From IMG/VR virus record IMGVR_UViG_3300006916_000044, positions 27,371 to 91,370 of that record: a stretch of 64,000 nucleotides of DNA. One strand, 5' to 3'. Of this stretch, positions 26,230 to 40,830 are shown piece after piece. How positions within the stretch are numbered: the first letter of the stretch is position 1; each line of letters begins with the position of its first letter. The position numbers were made by a program, and so were the translations under genes. The notes beneath the pieces were generated by a model. That model ran no database searches. It saw nothing but the letters and a program-made list of their open reading frames with translations, and was not told the DNA's origin. The stretch is from a virus.

Positions 26230-26355
26230 TTATTTAGAAGTTTTAAGTATTAGTGCTTTTAGTTTTTCTTTAAGCCATTCATGATCTGGATGCTTAACTG
26301 TAGCTAAAAGTTTAAATGATATTTCTTTTGCTGTTTTATTTATTATTTTTTCCAT
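26230..26355 (-). CDS. Small hypothetical protein (41 aa, MEKIINKTAKEISFK...)
   Basis: ATG-TAA ORF exactly filling the gap between the thioesterase and the convergent cargo gene; not in the ORF track. Confidence 0.5.
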   Translation of the reverse strand: MEKIINKTAKEISFKLLATVKHPDHEWLKEKLKALILKTSK

Positions 26356-26734
26356 TGTATTTATCTTTTACTTTATGACTAATTGGTATTGGCTCTCCTT
26401 GCTCATCTATTCTAACAAATGTCATGTTAGTTGATAGAACAACAGCTTGTCTACCGTTATATACATTATGTGATCTAGCTTCTAAACCAAGTTTAATACT
26501 TGTTTCTCCTACTTTATGTACTTTACCGTATATTTTAATAAGCTGACCTTCTTTTGTTGGTCTTTTAAATATACATTTATCTATAGAGACAGTCACCATT
26601 CTAGGTGTGTCACAACATTGAGCTGCAAAAGCAGCAGCGCTTGCATCTAACCAAGCTAATAATTTTCCTCCAAAAAGATTTCCGTGAAATCCTAAATCTG
26701 ATTTTTTTACTGGATGTGTATTTAATAAATCCAT
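26336..26734 (-). CDS. Hotdog-fold acyl-CoA thioesterase (YciA-like)
   Basis: DLGFHGNLFGGKLLAWLD, MVTVSID, VGETSI, TFVRIDEQGEPIPI motifs. Confidence 0.9.
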   Translation of the reverse strand: MDLLNTHPVKKSDLGFHGNLFGGKLLAWLDASAAAFAAQCCDTPRMVTVSIDKCIFKRPTKEGQLIKIYGKVHKVGETSIKLGLEARSHNVYNGRQAVVLSTNMTFVRIDEQGEPIPISHKVKDKYNGKNNK

Positions 26735-26750
26735 TCTTAATGTTTAGTTA

Positions 26751-26820
26751 ACATAAACTGAGGTTACATTACGTATCTTATTTATATGAAACGTATAGAT
26801 GTAACCCCAGTTGTTTATGT
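26751..26820. repeat. Long imperfect inverted repeat/hairpin
   Basis: ACATAAAC-TG-AGGTTACAT-TACGT ... ACGTA-TAG-ATGTAACC-CCAG-TT-GTTTATGT. Confidence 0.7.
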
Positions 26821-26860
26821 ATTGATTATGATTATTGTTTTTGCATTAGGTACTATGTGA
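26786..26860 (+). CDS. Putative 24-aa hydrophobic peptide MKRIDVTPVVYVLIMIIVFALGTM
   Basis: ATG in the hairpin loop, single TM-like helix, antisense to the nrdJ-thioesterase unit. Confidence 0.35.
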   Translation: MKRIDVTPVVYVLIMIIVFALGTM

Positions 26861-28712
26861 TTTCACATGCGCCACCAGCACAAGCAAGTTCACCTTTTAG
26901 ATCAGTATTATCATCAAGTTCTACAACTTTTGTAAGATCAACAGAAGTTACTGAGCTTATTAGCTCATTGTATTCTTTTTCTGTTATATCTTCAAATGGA
27001 GCTTGAGTATAAGTACCTCCATCATATGGTAATACAGATAAACCATTGTAATGGTCTCTGTTTTCCCACATCCATTCACCAGCTTGTTCCCATTCATCTT
27101 CTTTAAGAGACACTGTAGCAGAAACATTATGAGTATTAGATCCTTTTCTATGACCAGGTTTAACCCATTCTGTAGCTATTTTCTTTATTCTCTCTAGTAG
27201 ATCAAATGGTGATTCAGTTCTAAGTGTTGATCCTTCTGGTGCTTTTTGAGGAATACTAATGATTGCAGTATCATGACCACGGAATACACAGTCTTCAATA
27301 AGCTCAGGATGATGTACAGAAAGATATGTGTATATAGCTTCATTCTTACCAACTCTTATTCTTCTTAAATAGTAATCATTATGCCAAGCATGAATACCAG
27401 AAGAAGTTCCAAGAGTTAAAGATGTAGTACCCGCAGGTTTTACAGTAGTGCATCTTGCTGAAGAGTTAATACCTAATAGTCTAGCAATAAATTCATTTTC
27501 TTTTTTTACTATTTTTGCTGCCTCAGTAAGATTTAGAGAAGACACTTTACCACTTGCTATTCCTGTCATAGATACACCAATAAGAGCATCTTTTTCAGTT
27601 GTTTCTTTCCATATCTGTCTAAGATAGTGGAAGTTAGTATAGCTAGCTTGAAGTGTTCCAATAAATGCTGCAGCTTTAACTCTTTCATTTAAATCTTCTT
27701 GAGACTCAACGTTTGATACATTTACTTCACATAAATTGCAAAATTGAAAAGGACGTAGTGCTATCTCACAACATGGGTTTGTACCCCAATCTTTATCATT
27801 ATTAAAGTATATACCAGGTTCACCAGCACCAGACAATTCAACACGTTTCCATAAATCCATAAAGAAAGATTTAGTAATCTTATGTCTCATTAATACAGCT
27901 GAGTTGTTAGCTCTACCACGTTGTGGATTTAGTTCCCACCATGGTCCAGACTTACAACCAATCATTTGATCATCATCTGCACTAAATAAACTAATAAGAG
28001 CAGCACGTCTAATACCACCAGCAAGAACAGCATCAGCTATATAACAAATCATATCATGTACTTCAAGTGTAGATAGTTTATCACCATCTTCTTTAGCGCT
28101 TAGTAAACCTTCTAACTTTAATAAACATTCTTTAAGTGGTTGAGGACCAGGAGCTTTACCACCAGATGTAACTAGTCTAGCACCTTTAGGTCTAATGTCT
28201 GAAAAGTCAAATTCTATTTTAGATGATCTTGTTCCAAAATAAGATTTAACTAAAACTTTAATAGAATCAGCCCAACCTTCAATAGAGTCACCAATTAAGT
28301 ATCTTTTTGATCTTTTTTTAAACGGTTTATTTATAGAAGGAAGCTTGTCTACATGATGTTTCTGTACTGAATAACCAACGCCTGTACCACCTAAAAGTAA
28401 AAACATTGTTTCATTAAAAGCATCTAATGCATTAATAGGTAAATAAGCACAGTTATATACACGGTTAGGACTAACCTCAATTGGCTTACCGCCAAATTGC
28501 ATAGATCTCATAGAAGGTAAAATCTTCTTATCATATACAAATTTATATACATCCTCTATTTCACCTTTAAGGCCAGGATATTTTTTTATATGCATGTTTT
28601 TGTTACGAGTGACTAGTTCTTCCCAAGTCTCTCTTCTATTGTGTTCAGGTAAGTATTTTGCATACTTCATATGAACAGTAATTTCACTTAAAATTTTGTT
28701 ACTTAGATTCAT
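26853..28712 (-). CDS. nrdJ: Class II (adenosylcobalamin-dependent) ribonucleotide reductase, monomeric RTPR-type
   Basis: YNCAY, GTGVG, TNPCCEI, CNLCEVN, TTVKPAGT, C-terminal CAGGAC; no NrdB partner in the window. Confidence 0.92.
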   Translation of the reverse strand: MNLSNKILSEITVHMKYAKYLPEHNRRETWEELVTRNKNMHIKKYPGLKGEIEDVYKFVYDKKILPSMRSMQFGGKPIEVSPNRVYNCAYLPINALDAFNETMFLLLGGTGVGYSVQKHHVDKLPSINKPFKKRSKRYLIGDSIEGWADSIKVLVKSYFGTRSSKIEFDFSDIRPKGARLVTSGGKAPGPQPLKECLLKLEGLLSAKEDGDKLSTLEVHDMICYIADAVLAGGIRRAALISLFSADDDQMIGCKSGPWWELNPQRGRANNSAVLMRHKITKSFFMDLWKRVELSGAGEPGIYFNNDKDWGTNPCCEIALRPFQFCNLCEVNVSNVESQEDLNERVKAAAFIGTLQASYTNFHYLRQIWKETTEKDALIGVSMTGIASGKVSSLNLTEAAKIVKKENEFIARLLGINSSARCTTVKPAGTTSLTLGTSSGIHAWHNDYYLRRIRVGKNEAIYTYLSVHHPELIEDCVFRGHDTAIISIPQKAPEGSTLRTESPFDLLERIKKIATEWVKPGHRKGSNTHNVSATVSLKEDEWEQAGEWMWENRDHYNGLSVLPYDGGTYTQAPFEDITEKEYNELISSVTSVDLTKVVELDDNTDLKGELACAGGACEIT

Positions 28713-35201: not shown

Positions 35202-35339
35202 ATGGCTAAGAAGAAAAAAACAAAGAGTAAAAAAGATGCATGTTATCACAAAGCTAAAGCTAAGTACAGAGTATTTCCTAGTGCTTATGCTAGCGGATAT
35301 ATTGCTAAATGTAGAAAACGTAGAGGTAAGATAAAGTAA
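35202..35339 (+). CDS. Small basic protein (45 aa, KDACYHKAK..Y.VFPSAYASG..KCRK)
   Basis: TAATG-coupled to the next gene; motif recalled from aquatic phage small proteins; not in the ORF track. Confidence 0.7.
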   Translation: MAKKKKTKSKKDACYHKAKAKYRVFPSAYASGYIAKCRKRRGKIK

Positions 35340-35611
35340 TGGCAGTTAGAAAAACAAAAGCAGGAGCTAATCTTAAACGTTGGTTTAAAGAGAAGTGGAA
35401 AGACGAAAAGGGTAATCCTTGTGGTTCTTCTAAAAATAAGAAGACTAAAAAGTGTAGACCTACTAAACGTGTTAGTAAGGAAACACCTAGAACATGGGGC
35501 TCTTTATCTAAATCACAAAAAGCTAAAGCTGTTGCTGAGAAAAAGAAAGTGGGGATGGGCCGTAGAACTAGTTCTATCAGAAAAGGTAAGAAAAAATCTA
35601 AAAAGAAGTAA
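35339..35611 (+). CDS. Small basic protein (LKRWFKEKW...CRPTKRVS; DUF5872-like)
   Basis: Very K/R-rich; family name from recall. Confidence 0.65.
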   Translation: MAVRKTKAGANLKRWFKEKWKDEKGNPCGSSKNKKTKKCRPTKRVSKETPRTWGSLSKSQKAKAVAEKKKVGMGRRTSSIRKGKKKSKKK

Positions 35612-35613
35612 TT

Positions 35614-35877
35614 ATGGCAAGTAAAAAGAAAGGTGCAATGAAAGGCTGTTCTATTAAGAATGGTTGCAAAAGTAAAAAAGGTGGACTTACTGCTAAGGGC
35701 CGTAGAATGATTAATAAAAAAACTGGCTCTAAACTTAAAGCTCCACAACCAGGAGGAGGTAAACGTAAGAAATCATACTGCGCTAGATCAGCCGGTCAGA
35801 TGAAAATGCATAACGTTAACTGTAGTAAGACTCCAGATAAAAGAATTTGTAAAGCAAGAAGACGTTGGAAATGTTAA
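35614..35877 (+). CDS. Small basic protein (GGLTAKGR...KSYCAR...RRWKC; DUF6321-like)
   Basis: K/R-rich with conserved-looking Cys; family name from recall. Confidence 0.65.
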   Translation: MASKKKGAMKGCSIKNGCKSKKGGLTAKGRRMINKKTGSKLKAPQPGGGKRKKSYCARSAGQMKMHNVNCSKTPDKRICKARRRWKC

Positions 35878-35878
35878 G

Positions 35879-36064
35879 ATGGCAAAGAAAAAATTAGACA
35901 TAAAAAAAGCTATAAAAAAGCCTGGCTCACTAACAGCTGCAGCCAAGCGTAAAGGTATGACTATAGCACAATACTGTAAGAACCCGCCTAGTAAAAAGGC
36001 CGGTTATAGATGTAGATTTGCTAAGACACTTAAAAAGATTAGTAAAAAACGTAAAAAGAAATAA
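35879..36064 (+). CDS. Small basic protein (AIKKPGSL...FAKTLKK)
   Basis: Very K-rich; tightly packed in the operon. Confidence 0.65.
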   Translation: MAKKKLDIKKAIKKPGSLTAAAKRKGMTIAQYCKNPPSKKAGYRCRFAKTLKKISKKRKKK

Positions 36065-36066
36065 TA

Positions 36067-36516
36067 ATGCCTGTAACAACAAACCCTGTATATGCTTTTA
36101 GTACTAGATTAAGTACAACTAGAACATGGCTCCCTATTGATGGGATTGGTGCGTCCGGAACTCCAACAACTGGAGAGGATAGTGCAAAGTTTGCTACTCT
36201 TACTGTTACTAACTCAGGCTATTTAGCTAATGATAGAGCTACTCCAATAATCTTTCATATTGCAATCTGGAAGAGATCTTTGCTTGCAGCTAATAATACT
36301 ACTTTAATGGGGGCAGCAAATCAAATGGTATTTATTAGAACTAAAGTAAGTCTAACAGGTAATAATGATGTGTTTGAATTAAAAGACTTATATATAGATA
36401 AGTTTGTTCCTAATGATTCAACACCTGAAGATGAACCTTTAGTTTGTATTTGGATAGAAGCTACATCAGGATCTGGTGAAGCAAACGCATCATTAGATGT
36501 ATGTTTAACAAGATAG
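36067..36516 (+). CDS. Hypothetical beta-rich protein, possibly structural
   Basis: 149-aa ORF in the operon. Confidence 0.5.
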   Translation: MPVTTNPVYAFSTRLSTTRTWLPIDGIGASGTPTTGEDSAKFATLTVTNSGYLANDRATPIIFHIAIWKRSLLAANNTTLMGAANQMVFIRTKVSLTGNNDVFELKDLYIDKFVPNDSTPEDEPLVCIWIEATSGSGEANASLDVCLTR

Positions 36517-36518
36517 TT

Positions 36519-36734
36519 ATGTGGAAATTATTTAAAGATGAAAATGATATAAATGAAAAAGCCATAGTTGGCTTTGCTTCTTTTGTGCTAATGGTAATAT
36601 TTGCAATATGTGATTTAATTACTGGATGGTGCGGAATGGAACTTGTAATAAATGAAGTTATATATAATAGCTTTGTAATAGTAACTCTAGGGAGTTTTGG
36701 AATTAGCTCACTGGAAAAAATTAAAAAATCTTAA
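36519..36734 (+). CDS. Small two-TM membrane protein (holin-like)
   Basis: Two hydrophobic helices, LGSFGISSLEKIKK tail; ATG 36519 preferred. Confidence 0.6.
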   Translation: MWKLFKDENDINEKAIVGFASFVLMVIFAICDLITGWCGMELVINEVIYNSFVIVTLGSFGISSLEKIKKS

Positions 36735-36738
36735 GGTT

Positions 36739-36831
36739 ATGAAAAAATTTATTTGTATTTTATTATGTAAGATAACGTTTAACAAAGTATGTTTAGGCTG
36801 GTGTGAATCAGGCTGCTGCTTAAAAAAATAA
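36739..36831 (+). CDS. Cys-rich microprotein MKKFICILLCKITFNKVCLGWCESGCCLKK
   Basis: 30-aa ORF fitting the operon with 4-nt gaps; 6 Cys. Confidence 0.5.
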   Translation: MKKFICILLCKITFNKVCLGWCESGCCLKK

Positions 36832-36835
36832 TATT

Positions 36836-36997
36836 ATGCCAGGATATAAACATAGATATAAAAGTGGTGGCAGTAATAAAAGAGGAAACATATTACCTCA
36901 AGCTAGAAAAGGTGGACAACAAAGTTTGTTAAGTAAATTAACAACAAGAGCTCCTAAAAAAACTACAAAGGGATGTGGATGTGGTGGTCAAGTATAG
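36836..36997 (+). CDS. Small basic protein with YKSGG/ARKGG motifs and a GCGCGG end (53 aa)
   Basis: ATG-TAG ORF filling the gap; not in the ORF track. Confidence 0.55.
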   Translation: MPGYKHRYKSGGSNKRGNILPQARKGGQQSLLSKLTTRAPKKTTKGCGCGGQV

Positions 36998-37011
36998 TAA
37001 AAAAATTTAGT

Positions 37012-37488
37012 ATGAAACCAAGTAGAAAGCCTAATAAGGCAAGAAGAAGAAGAGCAGAAAAATGGTTTGCTGCTCATGGAATTAATCCTAACAGTCCAGA
37101 TAGTAATGGTAATGCAAATGTATTAGATGTAAGACCAACACTAACTTGGAAAGAAGATATGGATGGTGTAACTAGTTATCCATGTGAAATTAATGTAGAA
37201 GGATTTTTATTTTATGCACACGTAACAGTGTCCTTTACAGATAGTAAAGGTAACACACATGAATACGAAGGTGGCTCAGGTGGAATTGGAGTAGGAGATC
37301 TTACATGCGCTGGAGTAATTTACTTTGGTGATGAAGATGTGCTACTAAAAGCAACAACGTTTGGTGTAGCATTTGGTGCTGAAGACGGTGGTGTTTGTCA
37401 AGTAACTTGGGGGACCAGTGGAAACGCAACTGCAGCTGGGATTGGTGAAGGCTTAGGTGCCTTTGGTGGCAGCGGTAGTTGGAAATAA
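37012..37488 (+). CDS. VapA/VapB (Rhodococcus equi virulence-associated protein)-like beta-barrel protein
   Basis: Y....V...LFY..V.V, EYEGGSGGIGVG, GVIYFGD...L, GIGEGLGAFGGSGSWK run colinear with the Vap core ending GVGGGSGSW. Confidence 0.65.
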   Translation: MKPSRKPNKARRRRAEKWFAAHGINPNSPDSNGNANVLDVRPTLTWKEDMDGVTSYPCEINVEGFLFYAHVTVSFTDSKGNTHEYEGGSGGIGVGDLTCAGVIYFGDEDVLLKATTFGVAFGAEDGGVCQVTWGTSGNATAAGIGEGLGAFGGSGSWK

Positions 37489-37495
37489 TTATAAT

Positions 37496-37888
37496 ATGAG
37501 TATACTAGGAACTATATTTAGTGGAGGAGCTAAAGAACTTGTTGAAGGTGTAGGTGGTGTTATTGATGGACTACATACATCTGAAGAAGAAAAGCTAGCC
37601 GCTAAACAAAAAATGAAAGAACTTGTAGCTAATTATGAGGTCCAAATGGAAAAAGAAATAACTTCCAGATGGCAAGCAGATATGAAGTCTGACTCATGGC
37701 TATCTAAAAATATTAGACCATTAGTATTAGCATTCTTAGTTATAAGCACTGTGCTATTGATATTTATTGATGCAGGTGTTATTAACTTTGTTGTTGAAGC
37801 TAAATGGACTGATCTATTACAATTAGTATTAATCACAGTGATTGGTGCCTACTTTGGTGGCCGTTCACTAGAAAAAACAAAGAAATAA
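37496..37888 (+). CDS. 3TM-type holin (GTA_holin_3TM-like)
   Basis: TSEEEK, DMKSDSWLSKNIRP, GAYFGGRSLEK. Confidence 0.85.
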   Translation: MSILGTIFSGGAKELVEGVGGVIDGLHTSEEEKLAAKQKMKELVANYEVQMEKEITSRWQADMKSDSWLSKNIRPLVLAFLVISTVLLIFIDAGVINFVVEAKWTDLLQLVLITVIGAYFGGRSLEKTKK

Positions 37889-37965
37889 TGTCAAAATGTA
37901 CTTGCGGTTTAACTAAAGCAGAAGATGGGTCTTGTGATAAGTCTCATGAATCTTGCAAAGAGTAA
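37888..37965 (+). CDS. CDGSH-like Fe-S/metal-binding microprotein MSKCTCGLTKAEDGSCDKSHESCKE
   Basis: CxCxxT......CDxSH; TAATG overlaps at both ends. Confidence 0.6.
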   Translation: MSKCTCGLTKAEDGSCDKSHESCKE

Positions 37966-38336
37966 TGTATAATTATCAGATTGAGCTAATTAGGGTCATT
38001 GATGGAGATACTATTGATGCTTATATAGATCTTGGCTTTAGTGTTAAAGTTAAGAAACGTATAAGACTTGCTGGTATTAATACTCCTGAGTCAAGGACAA
38101 GAGATCTTGAAGAAAAGAAAAAAGGTCTTGCGGCTAAAGATAGACTTAAGAACCTATTAGAAGGATGTGATAAAATACTTTTAGATTCACAAGGTGTAGG
38201 TAAGTTTGGAAGATGTCTAGGTAAATTATCAATTGATAAAGTAGATGGATCTGATAAACTTACCATGATCTGTGTGAATGATTTATTAATCTCTGAAGGT
38301 CATGCTGTAGCATACCATGGAGGAAAAAGAAAATAG
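37965..38336 (+). CDS. Staphylococcal nuclease (thermonuclease)-family protein
   Basis: VIDGDTI, RIRLAGINTPE, GKFGRCLG, LLISEGHA. Confidence 0.88.
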   Translation: MYNYQIELIRVIDGDTIDAYIDLGFSVKVKKRIRLAGINTPESRTRDLEEKKKGLAAKDRLKNLLEGCDKILLDSQGVGKFGRCLGKLSIDKVDGSDKLTMICVNDLLISEGHAVAYHGGKRK

Positions 38337-38337
38337 A

Positions 38338-38496
38338 ATGAACATAAATTGGATAAATAGTTATAAATCTAATAATAAAAGTGAGATTTATAAAATAGAA
38401 CTTAGAATTGGAACCTTTTCAGCATTAGAAATTTTAATTAATGCAGCAAGGGTTAGGTTTATGCTTTTTAATCTAGGATTTGAAATAGAATTTTAG
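38338..38496 (+). CDS. Small hypothetical protein (52 aa, MNINWINSY...FNLGFEIEF)
   Basis: ORF starting 1 nt after the nuclease stop. Confidence 0.55.
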   Translation: MNINWINSYKSNNKSEIYKIELRIGTFSALEILINAARVRFMLFNLGFEIEF

Positions 38497-38512
38497 TATA
38501 TTATAATGTATT

Positions 38513-38791
38513 ATGCCTGCAAAAAGAGACTATAAAAAAGAATATAAGAAATTTCAGTCCTCTACTAAATCAAAAAAAGATAGAGCGGCTAGAAATAAAG
38601 CACGTAGAGAAGGTCTTAAAGTAGGTAAAGTACGTAAAGGTGATGGTAAAGATCTTCATCATCCTAATGGACCACGTTCACAGAAGACTGTAGCAATGTC
38701 AGCATCTAAAAACCGTGGTAAAAAAGAAAAGAGCAGAGTAAAAGGTAGTAAAAGAAACTACCCTAAAACAAGAAAAAAAAGAAGTAAATAA
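38513..38791 (+). CDS. Small basic HNH-like protein
   Basis: RDYKKEY...RAARNKARR...GDGKDLHH...SKNR. Confidence 0.65.
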   Translation: MPAKRDYKKEYKKFQSSTKSKKDRAARNKARREGLKVGKVRKGDGKDLHHPNGPRSQKTVAMSASKNRGKKEKSRVKGSKRNYPKTRKKRSK

Positions 38792-38808
38792 TTTTAAATA
38801 ATAAAAAA

Positions 38809-39225
38809 ATGGCAACAATTACAGGTAGATTATCATTAACAGGCACTGGTACAACTAGTGACGTTTTAAATATTGTTAAAGAAAAAGTTTTAACAGTTAC
38901 AAGCCCAGCTGTACAAGTTGGTACAACAGGATTAACAACATCATTTGCAACAACATTAGATGATTTAAATGGTACTAAGAATACTACAGATACGTATTTA
39001 TATATCATGAATACATCTGCTGGTACTGAAACAGTACATGCACAGACTGTAGCAACAGCTACATGTACTGAGTCAGGTGTACCTACAGTAACACAATCTC
39101 CATTAGCTAAGTTAGCTAAAGGTGAATTTGCATTAATTCCTCTTGAAGCATCAGCTCATTTACAATTTAAAGGATCTGCTACTACTGCAGTTATGGAATA
39201 CGGATTCTGGACTAAAAGTTCTTAA
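38809..39225 (+). CDS. Thr-rich probable structural protein
   Basis: YLYIMNT, LAKGEFALIP, MEYGFW beta-sandwich pattern. Confidence 0.55.
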   Translation: MATITGRLSLTGTGTTSDVLNIVKEKVLTVTSPAVQVGTTGLTTSFATTLDDLNGTKNTTDTYLYIMNTSAGTETVHAQTVATATCTESGVPTVTQSPLAKLAKGEFALIPLEASAHLQFKGSATTAVMEYGFWTKSS

Positions 39226-39422
39226 TCTATATCTAATAAAGGTTCTAAGTAGTTGATTGCCCAATTATATGCAGCAGCCGGGTAGGTAAATAGTTTTCTT
39301 TTTCTTTTTACCCACCTGGCTGACTTGCGTTCATATATTACCATTTCCCATTTTTTTCCTACTGGATAACAACACGGCCAATACCCCTTCTTGGTAAGGA
39401 ATTTAATTTCTTCTTTATACAT
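39222..39422 (-). CDS. Hypothetical protein
   Basis: 66-aa ORF coupled to the SPL-like gene; convergent with the + arm. Confidence 0.5.
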   Translation of the reverse strand: MYKEEIKFLTKKGYWPCCYPVGKKWEMVIYERKSARWVKRKRKLFTYPAAAYNWAINYLEPLLDID

Positions 39423-40258
39423 CAGAATATATATCTTATTGTTGCTATGTCAAAATAGTTTGCATAGATTTGTTTAAACATCTCTAGAAGCTTATGCTTC
39501 TTTGCTATTGGATAGCGCATCACTCCTGTCCCATTTTTAACTTCATCAGAATATTTCATAATCTCACGGGCCTCATCACTAGCTTTAATCATTTGATTAA
39601 CATGATTAGTCAATGCAATAACTTCACATTTATTTTCACCTGCTACCTCTTTAACACGTTTAAACAACTGGTCATAATGCTTAGACCACCCCGGCATAAA
39701 TATAAGTGGAGAAAAATTTAAATGTACTTCCCATCCTAAATCTTTAAGTCTATTAATGTCTTGTATTCTAGATTCAATTTTTTGCATCTTAGGTTCTAAT
39801 ACATCTGAATAAGCTTGAGGCATGAGACTTACCCTTACTCTAGGTGGTTTATTAAAATGATTAACATTAAGTTTAAGAAGACCCGGATACTTAGTAGCCA
39901 TAGTACTATTAAGTTGTGGGTGATCATCAAAGCGCTTAAGGTAATCATGTAGTGGTTCAGGCATATGCTTTTGCATTAGAACTAAATCTGAGTTGCATGC
40001 AATGTCTACCATTGTATATACTGGATCTTGCTGGTTAGGAACTTTAGTGTAGCCCGCTTCCCAAGCAAGAACAGAGTTAAATATATCATTAACATTAGTA
40101 TTAACAAATACTCTATGTCCATTAAATCTAGACATATAACAATATGTGTCTACACAGCCACCAAAACATCCATAGATTATATTTGGAGCTATGCAGTCAC
40201 TACTATTGTTATTTGTTTTTGTTACTAATGTTTTTGTTACTTGTTTTTTGATGGCCAT
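39422..40258 (-). CDS. splB: Spore photoproduct lyase-like radical SAM enzyme
   Basis: GCFGGCVDTYCYM Fe-S motif, DIACNSD (cf. SPL ..CTSD H-donor Cys), ATK, RVSLMP, LNFSPLI, RY near the C-terminus. Confidence 0.8.
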   Translation of the reverse strand: MAIKKQVTKTLVTKTNNNSSDCIAPNIIYGCFGGCVDTYCYMSRFNGHRVFVNTNVNDIFNSVLAWEAGYTKVPNQQDPVYTMVDIACNSDLVLMQKHMPEPLHDYLKRFDDHPQLNSTMATKYPGLLKLNVNHFNKPPRVRVSLMPQAYSDVLEPKMQKIESRIQDINRLKDLGWEVHLNFSPLIFMPGWSKHYDQLFKRVKEVAGENKCEVIALTNHVNQMIKASDEAREIMKYSDEVKNGTGVMRYPIAKKHKLLEMFKQIYANYFDIATIRYIF

Positions 40259-40734: not shown

Positions 40735-40756
40735 AATTAATAGTTTTGATTAATAG

Positions 40757-40830
40757 TACACCCAGAAGGACTTGAACCTTCAACCTACAGCTTAGAAGGC
40801 TGTTGCTCTATCCAATTGAGCTATGGGTGT
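40757..40830 (-). tRNA. tRNA-Arg(UCU)
   Basis: ACACCCA/TGGGTGT acceptor stem, TAGCTCAATTGGATAGAGC D-arm, ACAGC-CTTCTAA-GCTGT anticodon arm, GGTTCAAGTCC T-arm; CCA not encoded. Confidence 0.95.

Follow-up and report, generated by a model that had tools for sequence, protein, structure and literature searches.

A divergent Vap-fold protein predicted from a phage genome, with relatives in marine phages and a flavobacterium

The Vap fold is known almost solely as a key macrophage-survival factor of a single animal pathogen, Rhodococcus (Prescottella) equi, and the mechanism by which it acts is debated. The R. equi proteins VapA/B/D/G (PF05526; PDB 4csb, 4cv7, 7b1z, 5aeo) share an eight-stranded barrel with a helix after strand 4. 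VapA binds phosphatidic-acid liposomes at acidic but not at neutral pH, permeabilises membranes and neutralises phagolysosomes; VapN is weaker than VapA, and VapB, although 78% identical to VapA, has almost no activity (PMC10100859). VapD has no internal cavity, has been seen with octyl-glucoside bound on a glycine "bald spot", and resembles in its fold the lysozyme inhibitor PliC and the avidins (PMC4118825). Leaderless, single-copy Vap-like genes with no assigned role have been described in E. coli, Clostridium, Halomonas, Xenorhabdus and the marine flavobacterium Lacinutrix (Whittingham et al. 2014, PMC4118825 section 3.9). Here we describe a gene of this type in viral DNA, located at 37012..37488 (+) of a 64,000-nucleotide stretch, hereafter the window. 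This is the terminal 64 kb of a linear virus record of 91 kb in IMG/VR (IMGVR_UViG_3300006916_000044) with a completeness estimate of 79%.

Homology and predicted fold of the phage protein

The product of this gene is almost certainly a genuine, if divergent, homologue of the Vap family, with a structure that is predicted; we conclude this because family profiles picked out only Vap chains and the model superposed on VapD, with the next fold scoring far lower. The first-pass annotation, made from the letters of the DNA, had claimed homology to VapA with colinear motifs, a claim borne out by both the profiles and the model, and the three strings that it quoted were all located in the translation. 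The reading frame, which encodes 158 amino acids (aa) followed by TAA, is supported by its homologues, by the profile matches to VapD and VapB, by an AlphaFold2 (AF2) model and by the ratio of nonsynonymous to synonymous substitution rates (dN/dS). An alternative in-frame ATG at 36973 would provide a longer start that runs into the upstream open reading frame (ORF); homologues start near 37012.

A set of 5.8 billion proteins yielded 52 homologues at E<=0.01, and with clustering at 50% there were 33 representatives; most come from marine metagenomes. When a profile of 42 relatives was compared with all PDB chain sequences, only VapD (E 0.0015), VapG and VapB were matched, colinearly across the whole barrel; a profile of 16 diverse members matched VapD at E 5e-8 and VapB at E 1.1e-4, and no other family was significant. 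The Pfam model PF05526 (R_equi_Vir; curated gathering cut-off 25 bits), which the first-pass annotation had named as a check, returned no match to the window protein, nor to the whole 91-kb virus record in six frames. At E<=1 the model was matched by 10 of the 42 relatives, the best (P0044; E 1.9e-5) scoring 25.0 bits, exactly at the cut-off, and the others 13.7-22.9 bits, all below it. Since R_equi_Vir misses the window protein, the homology is visible only through family profiles and fold. The nearest ESM Atlas clusters of the protein are annotated PF05526, a tag already carried by some relatives in IMG-type precomputed annotation. Searches with the window protein alone were uninformative: the Pfam scan gave just a sub-threshold match to the unrelated Clospo_01618-like family (E 0.11), the PHROGs scan gave no match, and the sole phmmer match of the single sequence to PDB was a spurious linker artefact.

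The AF2 model, computed from a 42-row alignment without templates, had a mean predicted local distance difference test score (pLDDT) of 87, exceeding 90 throughout the barrel. Strands were assigned to residues 54-65, 68-76, 82-105, 116-124, 127-132 and 138-157 and a helix to residues 108-113, giving a closed antiparallel barrel of eight strands in which one short helix separates strands 4 and 5. In a Foldseek search of PDB with this model, ranks 1-5 were all Vap chains (E 1e-5 to 1e-3; target template modelling score, TM, 0.63-0.75), and the matches below them were unrelated (TM <0.25). VIA-align placed model residues 51-158 on VapD residues 22-134 with Z 17.7 and a root-mean-square deviation (rmsd) of 1.5 A for 105 of 113 residues; VapB (Z 15.1 and 13.9) and VapG (Z 13.9) followed, and the next entry was OmpW (Z 5.4). 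Over the R. equi Vaps as a whole, the likeness amounts to Z 14-18, rmsd 1.5-2.2 A and 21-24% identity over ~100 residues. The comparison with VapB/D/G structures that the first-pass annotation had proposed alongside the Pfam search therefore put Vap chains at the top, and similarity was found at the level of both profile and structure. A homodimer prediction, run without controls, scored 0.02.

The BFVD library of viral structures, searched with the same model, held no matching phage entry. Its sole viral match was Q677V4, an uncharacterised 121-aa iridovirus protein from lymphocystis disease virus-China (Foldseek E 4.5e-3, target TM 0.59, 12% identity).

The barrel comprises residues 51-158 (108 aa; 37162..37485, +) and was delimited by structure alignment, predicted secondary structure and charge; it is glycine-rich and acidic (net charge -10, isoelectric point (pI) 4.1) and terminates in G-G-S-G-S-W-K. 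Residues named for VapD in PMC4118825 were located in it from the printed HMMER alignment, and the correspondences are those of that alignment. On this basis the "bald spot" pair Gly62/Gly128 corresponds to G90, which is invariant, and G152, which is conserved in >=90% of sequences; Tyr39 corresponds to Y68 (>=90% conserved) and the terminal Trp to W157. Across 42 sequences G153, G155 and W157 are invariant, preserving the glycine-rich C-terminal strand followed by Trp that typifies Vap proteins.

Residues 1-50 form an N-terminal arm (37012..37161, +) composed of a basic leader, a predicted helix at residues 9-21, an A-x-x-(Y/W)-F-x-x-x-G-I-(N/D)-P motif and a variable linker. The arm is hydrophilic, with a net charge of +6 and no hydrophobic segment suited to a signal peptide, in agreement with the earlier claim that the signal peptide is absent. 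The "basic leader" reported along with that claim is a property of the window protein that is only loosely kept among its relatives, in which the mean arm charge is +2.7 and some arms are neutral or acidic. What is kept is the motif: F19 and G23 are invariant, and I24 and P26 nearly so, in the 42 sequences, describing a helix followed by a G-I-(N/D)-P turn, and the motif is preserved in the most distant members as well as in members that have a signal peptide (P0077) or a hydrophobic N-terminus (P0047, P0039). In those few members the N-terminal sequence suggests a possible envelope location.

The helix and G-I-N-P-N turn at residues 15-35 (window 37054-37116) recall the ankyrin consensus ..LL..GADPN..D..G. 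When the N-terminal 50 residues were compared with PDB, only a non-significant likeness to an ankyrin-repeat helix-loop was returned (E 0.016 against designed ankyrins), which, judged from the sequence, probably reflects merely a shared helix-capping turn.

Against its relatives the gene gave dN/dS values of 0.08-0.17 with synonymous divergence (dS) of ~1, indicating strong purifying selection. Identity to one relative, in locus L002, reaches 87% over 141 compared codons; because dS is ~1, this identity reflects constraint, and a recent horizontal transfer as its source was ruled out.

Genomic setting in the window, in other phages and in a flavobacterium

The genome that carries the window has a GC content of ~30%, a 5,148-codon ORF, an 824-aa protein with a C-terminal type IX secretion sorting domain, and a DNA polymerase ~34% identical to its counterpart in Cellulophaga phage phi14:2; taken together, these sequence traits fit a marine crAss-like phage of a Bacteroidota host. 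The Vap-like gene is present in one copy in the 91-kb record. It lies in a tightly packed string of genes, all on the same strand, that includes a 77-aa single-pass membrane protein (36501..36734, +; cluster c24) and then a 53-aa Lys/Arg-rich (K/R-rich) ORF without a Pfam family (36836..36997, +), which adjoins the Vap-like gene across a 14-nt gap. After a gap of 7 nt beyond the Vap-like stop comes a 130-aa holin (37496..37888, +; phrog_3427 E 4.1e-32; Pfam GTA_holin_3TM E 2.8e-4, below cut-off), homologues of which are annotated as holin beside endolysin in Vibrio and Nonlabens phages. Next in the string is not an endolysin but an SNase-type nuclease (37953..38336, +; Pfam SNase E 5e-9; phrog_452 endonuclease E 1.9e-35). 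Promoter and terminator scans around the Vap-like gene gave background levels, with no terminator-like site between it and the holin.

An IMG/VR scan identified 61 loci encoding relatives at 41-86% identity, with one copy per locus. The positions taken by the gene in these loci are diverse. It lies between a 172-aa protein and GroES plus large terminase in L012 (5511-8500), between GroEL (Cpn60, E 1e-49) and GroES in L034 (1250-3726), after RecA and an HNH endonuclease in L015, directly after the portal in L046, before an AhpC/thioredoxin-like gene in L032, and 0.9 kb upstream of an endolysin with PG_binding_1 and Amidase_2 domains in L058; in some loci an endolysin is 0.9-3.5 kb away. Even among loci with one syntenic backbone in common, such as L012, L058 and L037, the gene is found in no fewer than three slots. 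The 77-aa membrane protein was the sole recurring neighbour that is not K-rich, with tblastn matches in 6 loci at 1.9-4.4 kb from the Vap-like gene. K/R-rich small ORFs were immediate neighbours in 8 of 21 distinct neighbour classes against 4.4 expected, a weak excess given that the classes are non-independent; among these K-rich ORFs is phrog_7595, a frequent downstream neighbour with a weak match to the "minor head protein and DNA pilot" family (E 7e-6). No longer or fused form of the Vap-like protein was found, which is weak evidence, and a tblastn search of 50,697 cultured and deposited phage genomes and 72,556 plasmids returned no relative.

Two arrangements recur among these loci. In ~20 loci similar to L034 and L012 the Vap-like gene is directly upstream of phage GroES and the large terminase. 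In L015 (5569-5982), and also in L016, L017, L023 and L035, an HNH/homing-endonuclease-like ORF follows RecA/UvsX and immediately precedes the Vap-like gene; going by its sequence, this ORF is a possible vehicle for the gene's shifting position.

Genome contigs contained no relative in a first profile search, and a second search recovered one alone, on a contig of an uncultured Aquimarina (Flavobacteriaceae; L063:605-2363). This cellular copy encodes 153 aa with the same N-terminal motif and is 45-54% identical to members of the family. It lies 0.6 kb from the contig end among ordinary chromosomal genes, being followed by ORFs of 130 and 200 aa without a Pfam family and then by genes for a TPR histidine kinase and for a response regulator of the LytTR type. 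The family is conserved and single-copy, takes up many different positions in the genomes of marine phages, and is common to these and at least one marine flavobacterium.

Several other features of the window were recorded. The K/R-rich ORF upstream of the Vap-like gene belongs to an array of Lys/Arg-rich small ORFs of 45-92 aa (35202-36064, 36836-36997 and 38513-38791), two of which match DUF5872 (E 3e-14) and DUF6321 (E 7e-17). At 26336-28712 (-), in the interval that separates the structural block from the envelope and late genes, a 4HBT-type thioesterase (E 2e-15) adjoins a class II (B12-dependent) ribonucleotide reductase-like gene. The switch of gene strand from plus to minus is marked by a tRNA-Arg(TCT) at 40756-40830 (-) and a spore-photoproduct-lyase-like radical SAM gene at 39422-40258 (-; Pfam SPL, E 1.5e-17). 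DNA near-identical to 36000-39300 (at least half of sampled words) was detected in 11 sequencing runs from several studies, none of them RNA, labelled, among other things, as freshwater or marine metagenomes or with coded host organisms; the share was 0.42 in a run from a hydrothermal-vent metagenome.

Possible roles of the protein

By analogy with VapA, we tentatively favour a non-enzymatic role at lipid or glycolipid surfaces for the barrel, which would be made together with the holin and would act on the host envelope late in infection. A non-enzymatic barrel of this kind is preferred because the family keeps the glycine pair and the acidic barrel. The phage would make the protein late, as we infer from the tightly packed gene string that it shares with the holin, and the barrel would then, like VapA, bind and perturb a lipid or glycolipid surface. 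Because its production would be late and from the same string as the holin, its action on the host envelope would take place no earlier than holin triggering, either from the cytoplasmic side or once the protein has escaped through the holin lesions.

A number of observations weigh against this proposal. Conservation of the fold does not guarantee membrane activity even within R. equi, given the weakness of VapB (PMC10100859). The VapD positions Ser90, Gln92, Asn94, Asn101 and Asn103 correspond here to G118, A120, G122, Q130 and T132, of which only Q130 keeps an amide; Ser90 and three of the four residues of the "amide cluster" of the R. equi Vaps are thus replaced. The net charge of the barrel ranges from -5 to -13 across the family, and at neutral pH such acidity should make the barrel less apt to bind the anionic membranes of bacteria. 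A classical amphipathic, membrane-binding N-terminal helix was ruled out by a hydrophobic moment of 0.2-0.5 and very low hydrophobicity. Among 20 window ORFs scanned with Pfam and PHROGs no endolysin or other muralytic enzyme was recognised, so a classical lysis cassette is not demonstrated. The first-pass annotation placed the gene next to the holin, which is correct for the window and does not extend to the family: a homologue of this holin was found in 0 of the 61 loci, and almost no other window neighbour was shared. ORF clustering over the loci gave the 21 distinct immediate-neighbour classes referred to above, and small membrane proteins occurred within two genes in 12 of these, where the gene content of the loci themselves leads one to expect 10.8, which is not an enrichment. 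A conserved partnership with the holin was accordingly ruled out.

The variable neighbourhoods and the Aquimarina copy suit at least as well the chief alternative, in which the protein works in the cytoplasm, binding or inhibiting a host protein or ligand through the N-terminal helix and motif, its gene being shared with the host and its proximity to the holin incidental. We consider this a serious contender, although a somewhat doubtful one. Most members lack a signal peptide, as do the bacterial Vap-like genes of 2014; the neighbourhoods often contain replication, recombination or chaperonin genes; the strongly conserved, non-amphipathic N-terminal motif suggests a protein partner; and the resemblance of the VapD fold to PliC and avidins (PMC4118825) would accord with binding or inhibition. 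Yet VapD lacks an internal cavity, no partner gene consistently accompanies the Vap-like gene, the few members with a signal peptide or hydrophobic N-terminal segment point to the envelope, and the conserved glycine "bald spot" is the face that in VapD binds lipid and detergent. It is improbable, in our estimate, that the protein is instead packaged in the virion, held to DNA in the head by its basic arm, and ejected with the DNA to perturb the recipient envelope at entry. The genes directly beside it in other phages (the portal, or GroES and the large terminase), its position after virion cargo and the structural block in the window, the excess of K/R-rich flanking ORFs and the "DNA pilot" match of phrog_7595 are all consistent with packaging, but the protein resembles no PHROG structural family, has no phage match in BFVD, and is kept at up to 87% identity where neighbours have no detectable similarity to those of the window, which would be unusual for a part fitted to a capsid; the K-rich enrichment itself is weak and drawn from non-independent classes.

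The first-pass annotation had suggested, alongside carriage on the virion and a part as a membrane-active lysis accessory, that the protein might protect phage or infected cells in protist food vacuoles. On this view the protein, released at lysis or present in ingested cells, would be membrane-active only at low pH, would neutralise the vacuoles and so would shield virions or infected cells from digestion. The true homology to VapA, with its acid-dependent binding and phagolysosome neutralisation, lends this idea some appeal, as do the marine and aquatic habitat and the discussion of soil amoebae as an R. equi niche; the barrel, at pI ~4.1, falls within the 7-14% most acidic proteins of the related phage loci, and protonation at vacuolar pH would remove its charge. 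Acidity is nevertheless common in these phage proteomes, VapB illustrates that close Vap relatives can lack activity, and what happens after lysis or ingestion could exert only an indirect selection on a phage gene; we hold the suggestion to be very improbable. Fainter still is the prospect that marine Flavobacteriia phages carry an acid-activated, VapA-like permeabiliser as an anti-digestion factor against protists, letting infected cells or newly released virions outlast ingestion, and that the R. equi macrophage-survival factor arose from an ancient anti-grazing fold that was environmental and associated with phages. That the resemblance to Vap proteins arose by chance, or that the ORF is a non-coding artefact, could be argued from the failure of R_equi_Vir to detect the window protein, and is refuted by 52 homologues, 61 viral loci, dN/dS of ~0.1, the VapD profile match at E 5e-8 and the superposition at Z 17.7.

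Should the protein prove membrane-active, it would represent a new kind of non-enzymatic envelope effector for phage biology and would inform how Vap proteins disturb membranes; should it not, the fold would have a different ancestral job.

Relation to described systems

Small late proteins with a non-enzymatic action on membranes are encoded beside the holin in other phages, as exemplified by the spanins (lambda Rz/Rz1) and by disruptin-type peptides. The likeness to these is a functional analogy only, drawn under the favoured role, and they have no relation in sequence or fold to the Vap-like protein; unlike them, it lacks a lipobox, a transmembrane anchor and any cationic amphipathic peptide, and its adjacency to lysis genes is not family-wide.

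With the R. equi Vaps the phage protein has in common the G-S-G-S-W end, the cross-strand glycine pair, the tyrosine, an acidic barrel and an N-terminal region outside the barrel. The R. equi proteins carry a Sec signal peptide and a variable, disordered tail, whereas the phage protein has no signal peptide and displays the conserved helix and G-I-(N/D)-P motif, which is absent from the R. equi proteins and to which the subfamily draws attention. The genetic settings differ likewise: the R. equi genes form a paralogue cluster on the pathogenicity island of a virulence plasmid in a mycolic-acid actinomycete, whereas the phage gene is single-copy in phage genomes and its host is a marine Gram-negative (Bacteroidota).

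The closer parallel is with the leaderless Vap-like genes reported in 2014 (PMC4118825), which are likewise single genes of ~150-200 aa, with no signal peptide and with a glycine-rich end followed by Trp; these were described as chromosomal bacterial genes, with phage carriage unmentioned, and we liken them to the phage subfamily by description only. Lacinutrix, the source of one of them, and Aquimarina, the source of the cellular copy found here, are both marine flavobacteria. In the library of papers searched, none dealt with phage proteins that are Vap-like or assigned to PF05526.

The Vap fold and its leaderless bacterial relatives were therefore already known in 2014, and the homology extends that observation without introducing a new principle. 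The leaderless Vap-fold subfamily in marine phages and flavobacteria offers a second setting for the fold, non-pathogenic and experimentally tractable. What is added to the described systems is a verified, distinct phage and flavobacterial subfamily with its own N-terminal motif, strong constraint and a position that shifts between phage genomes.

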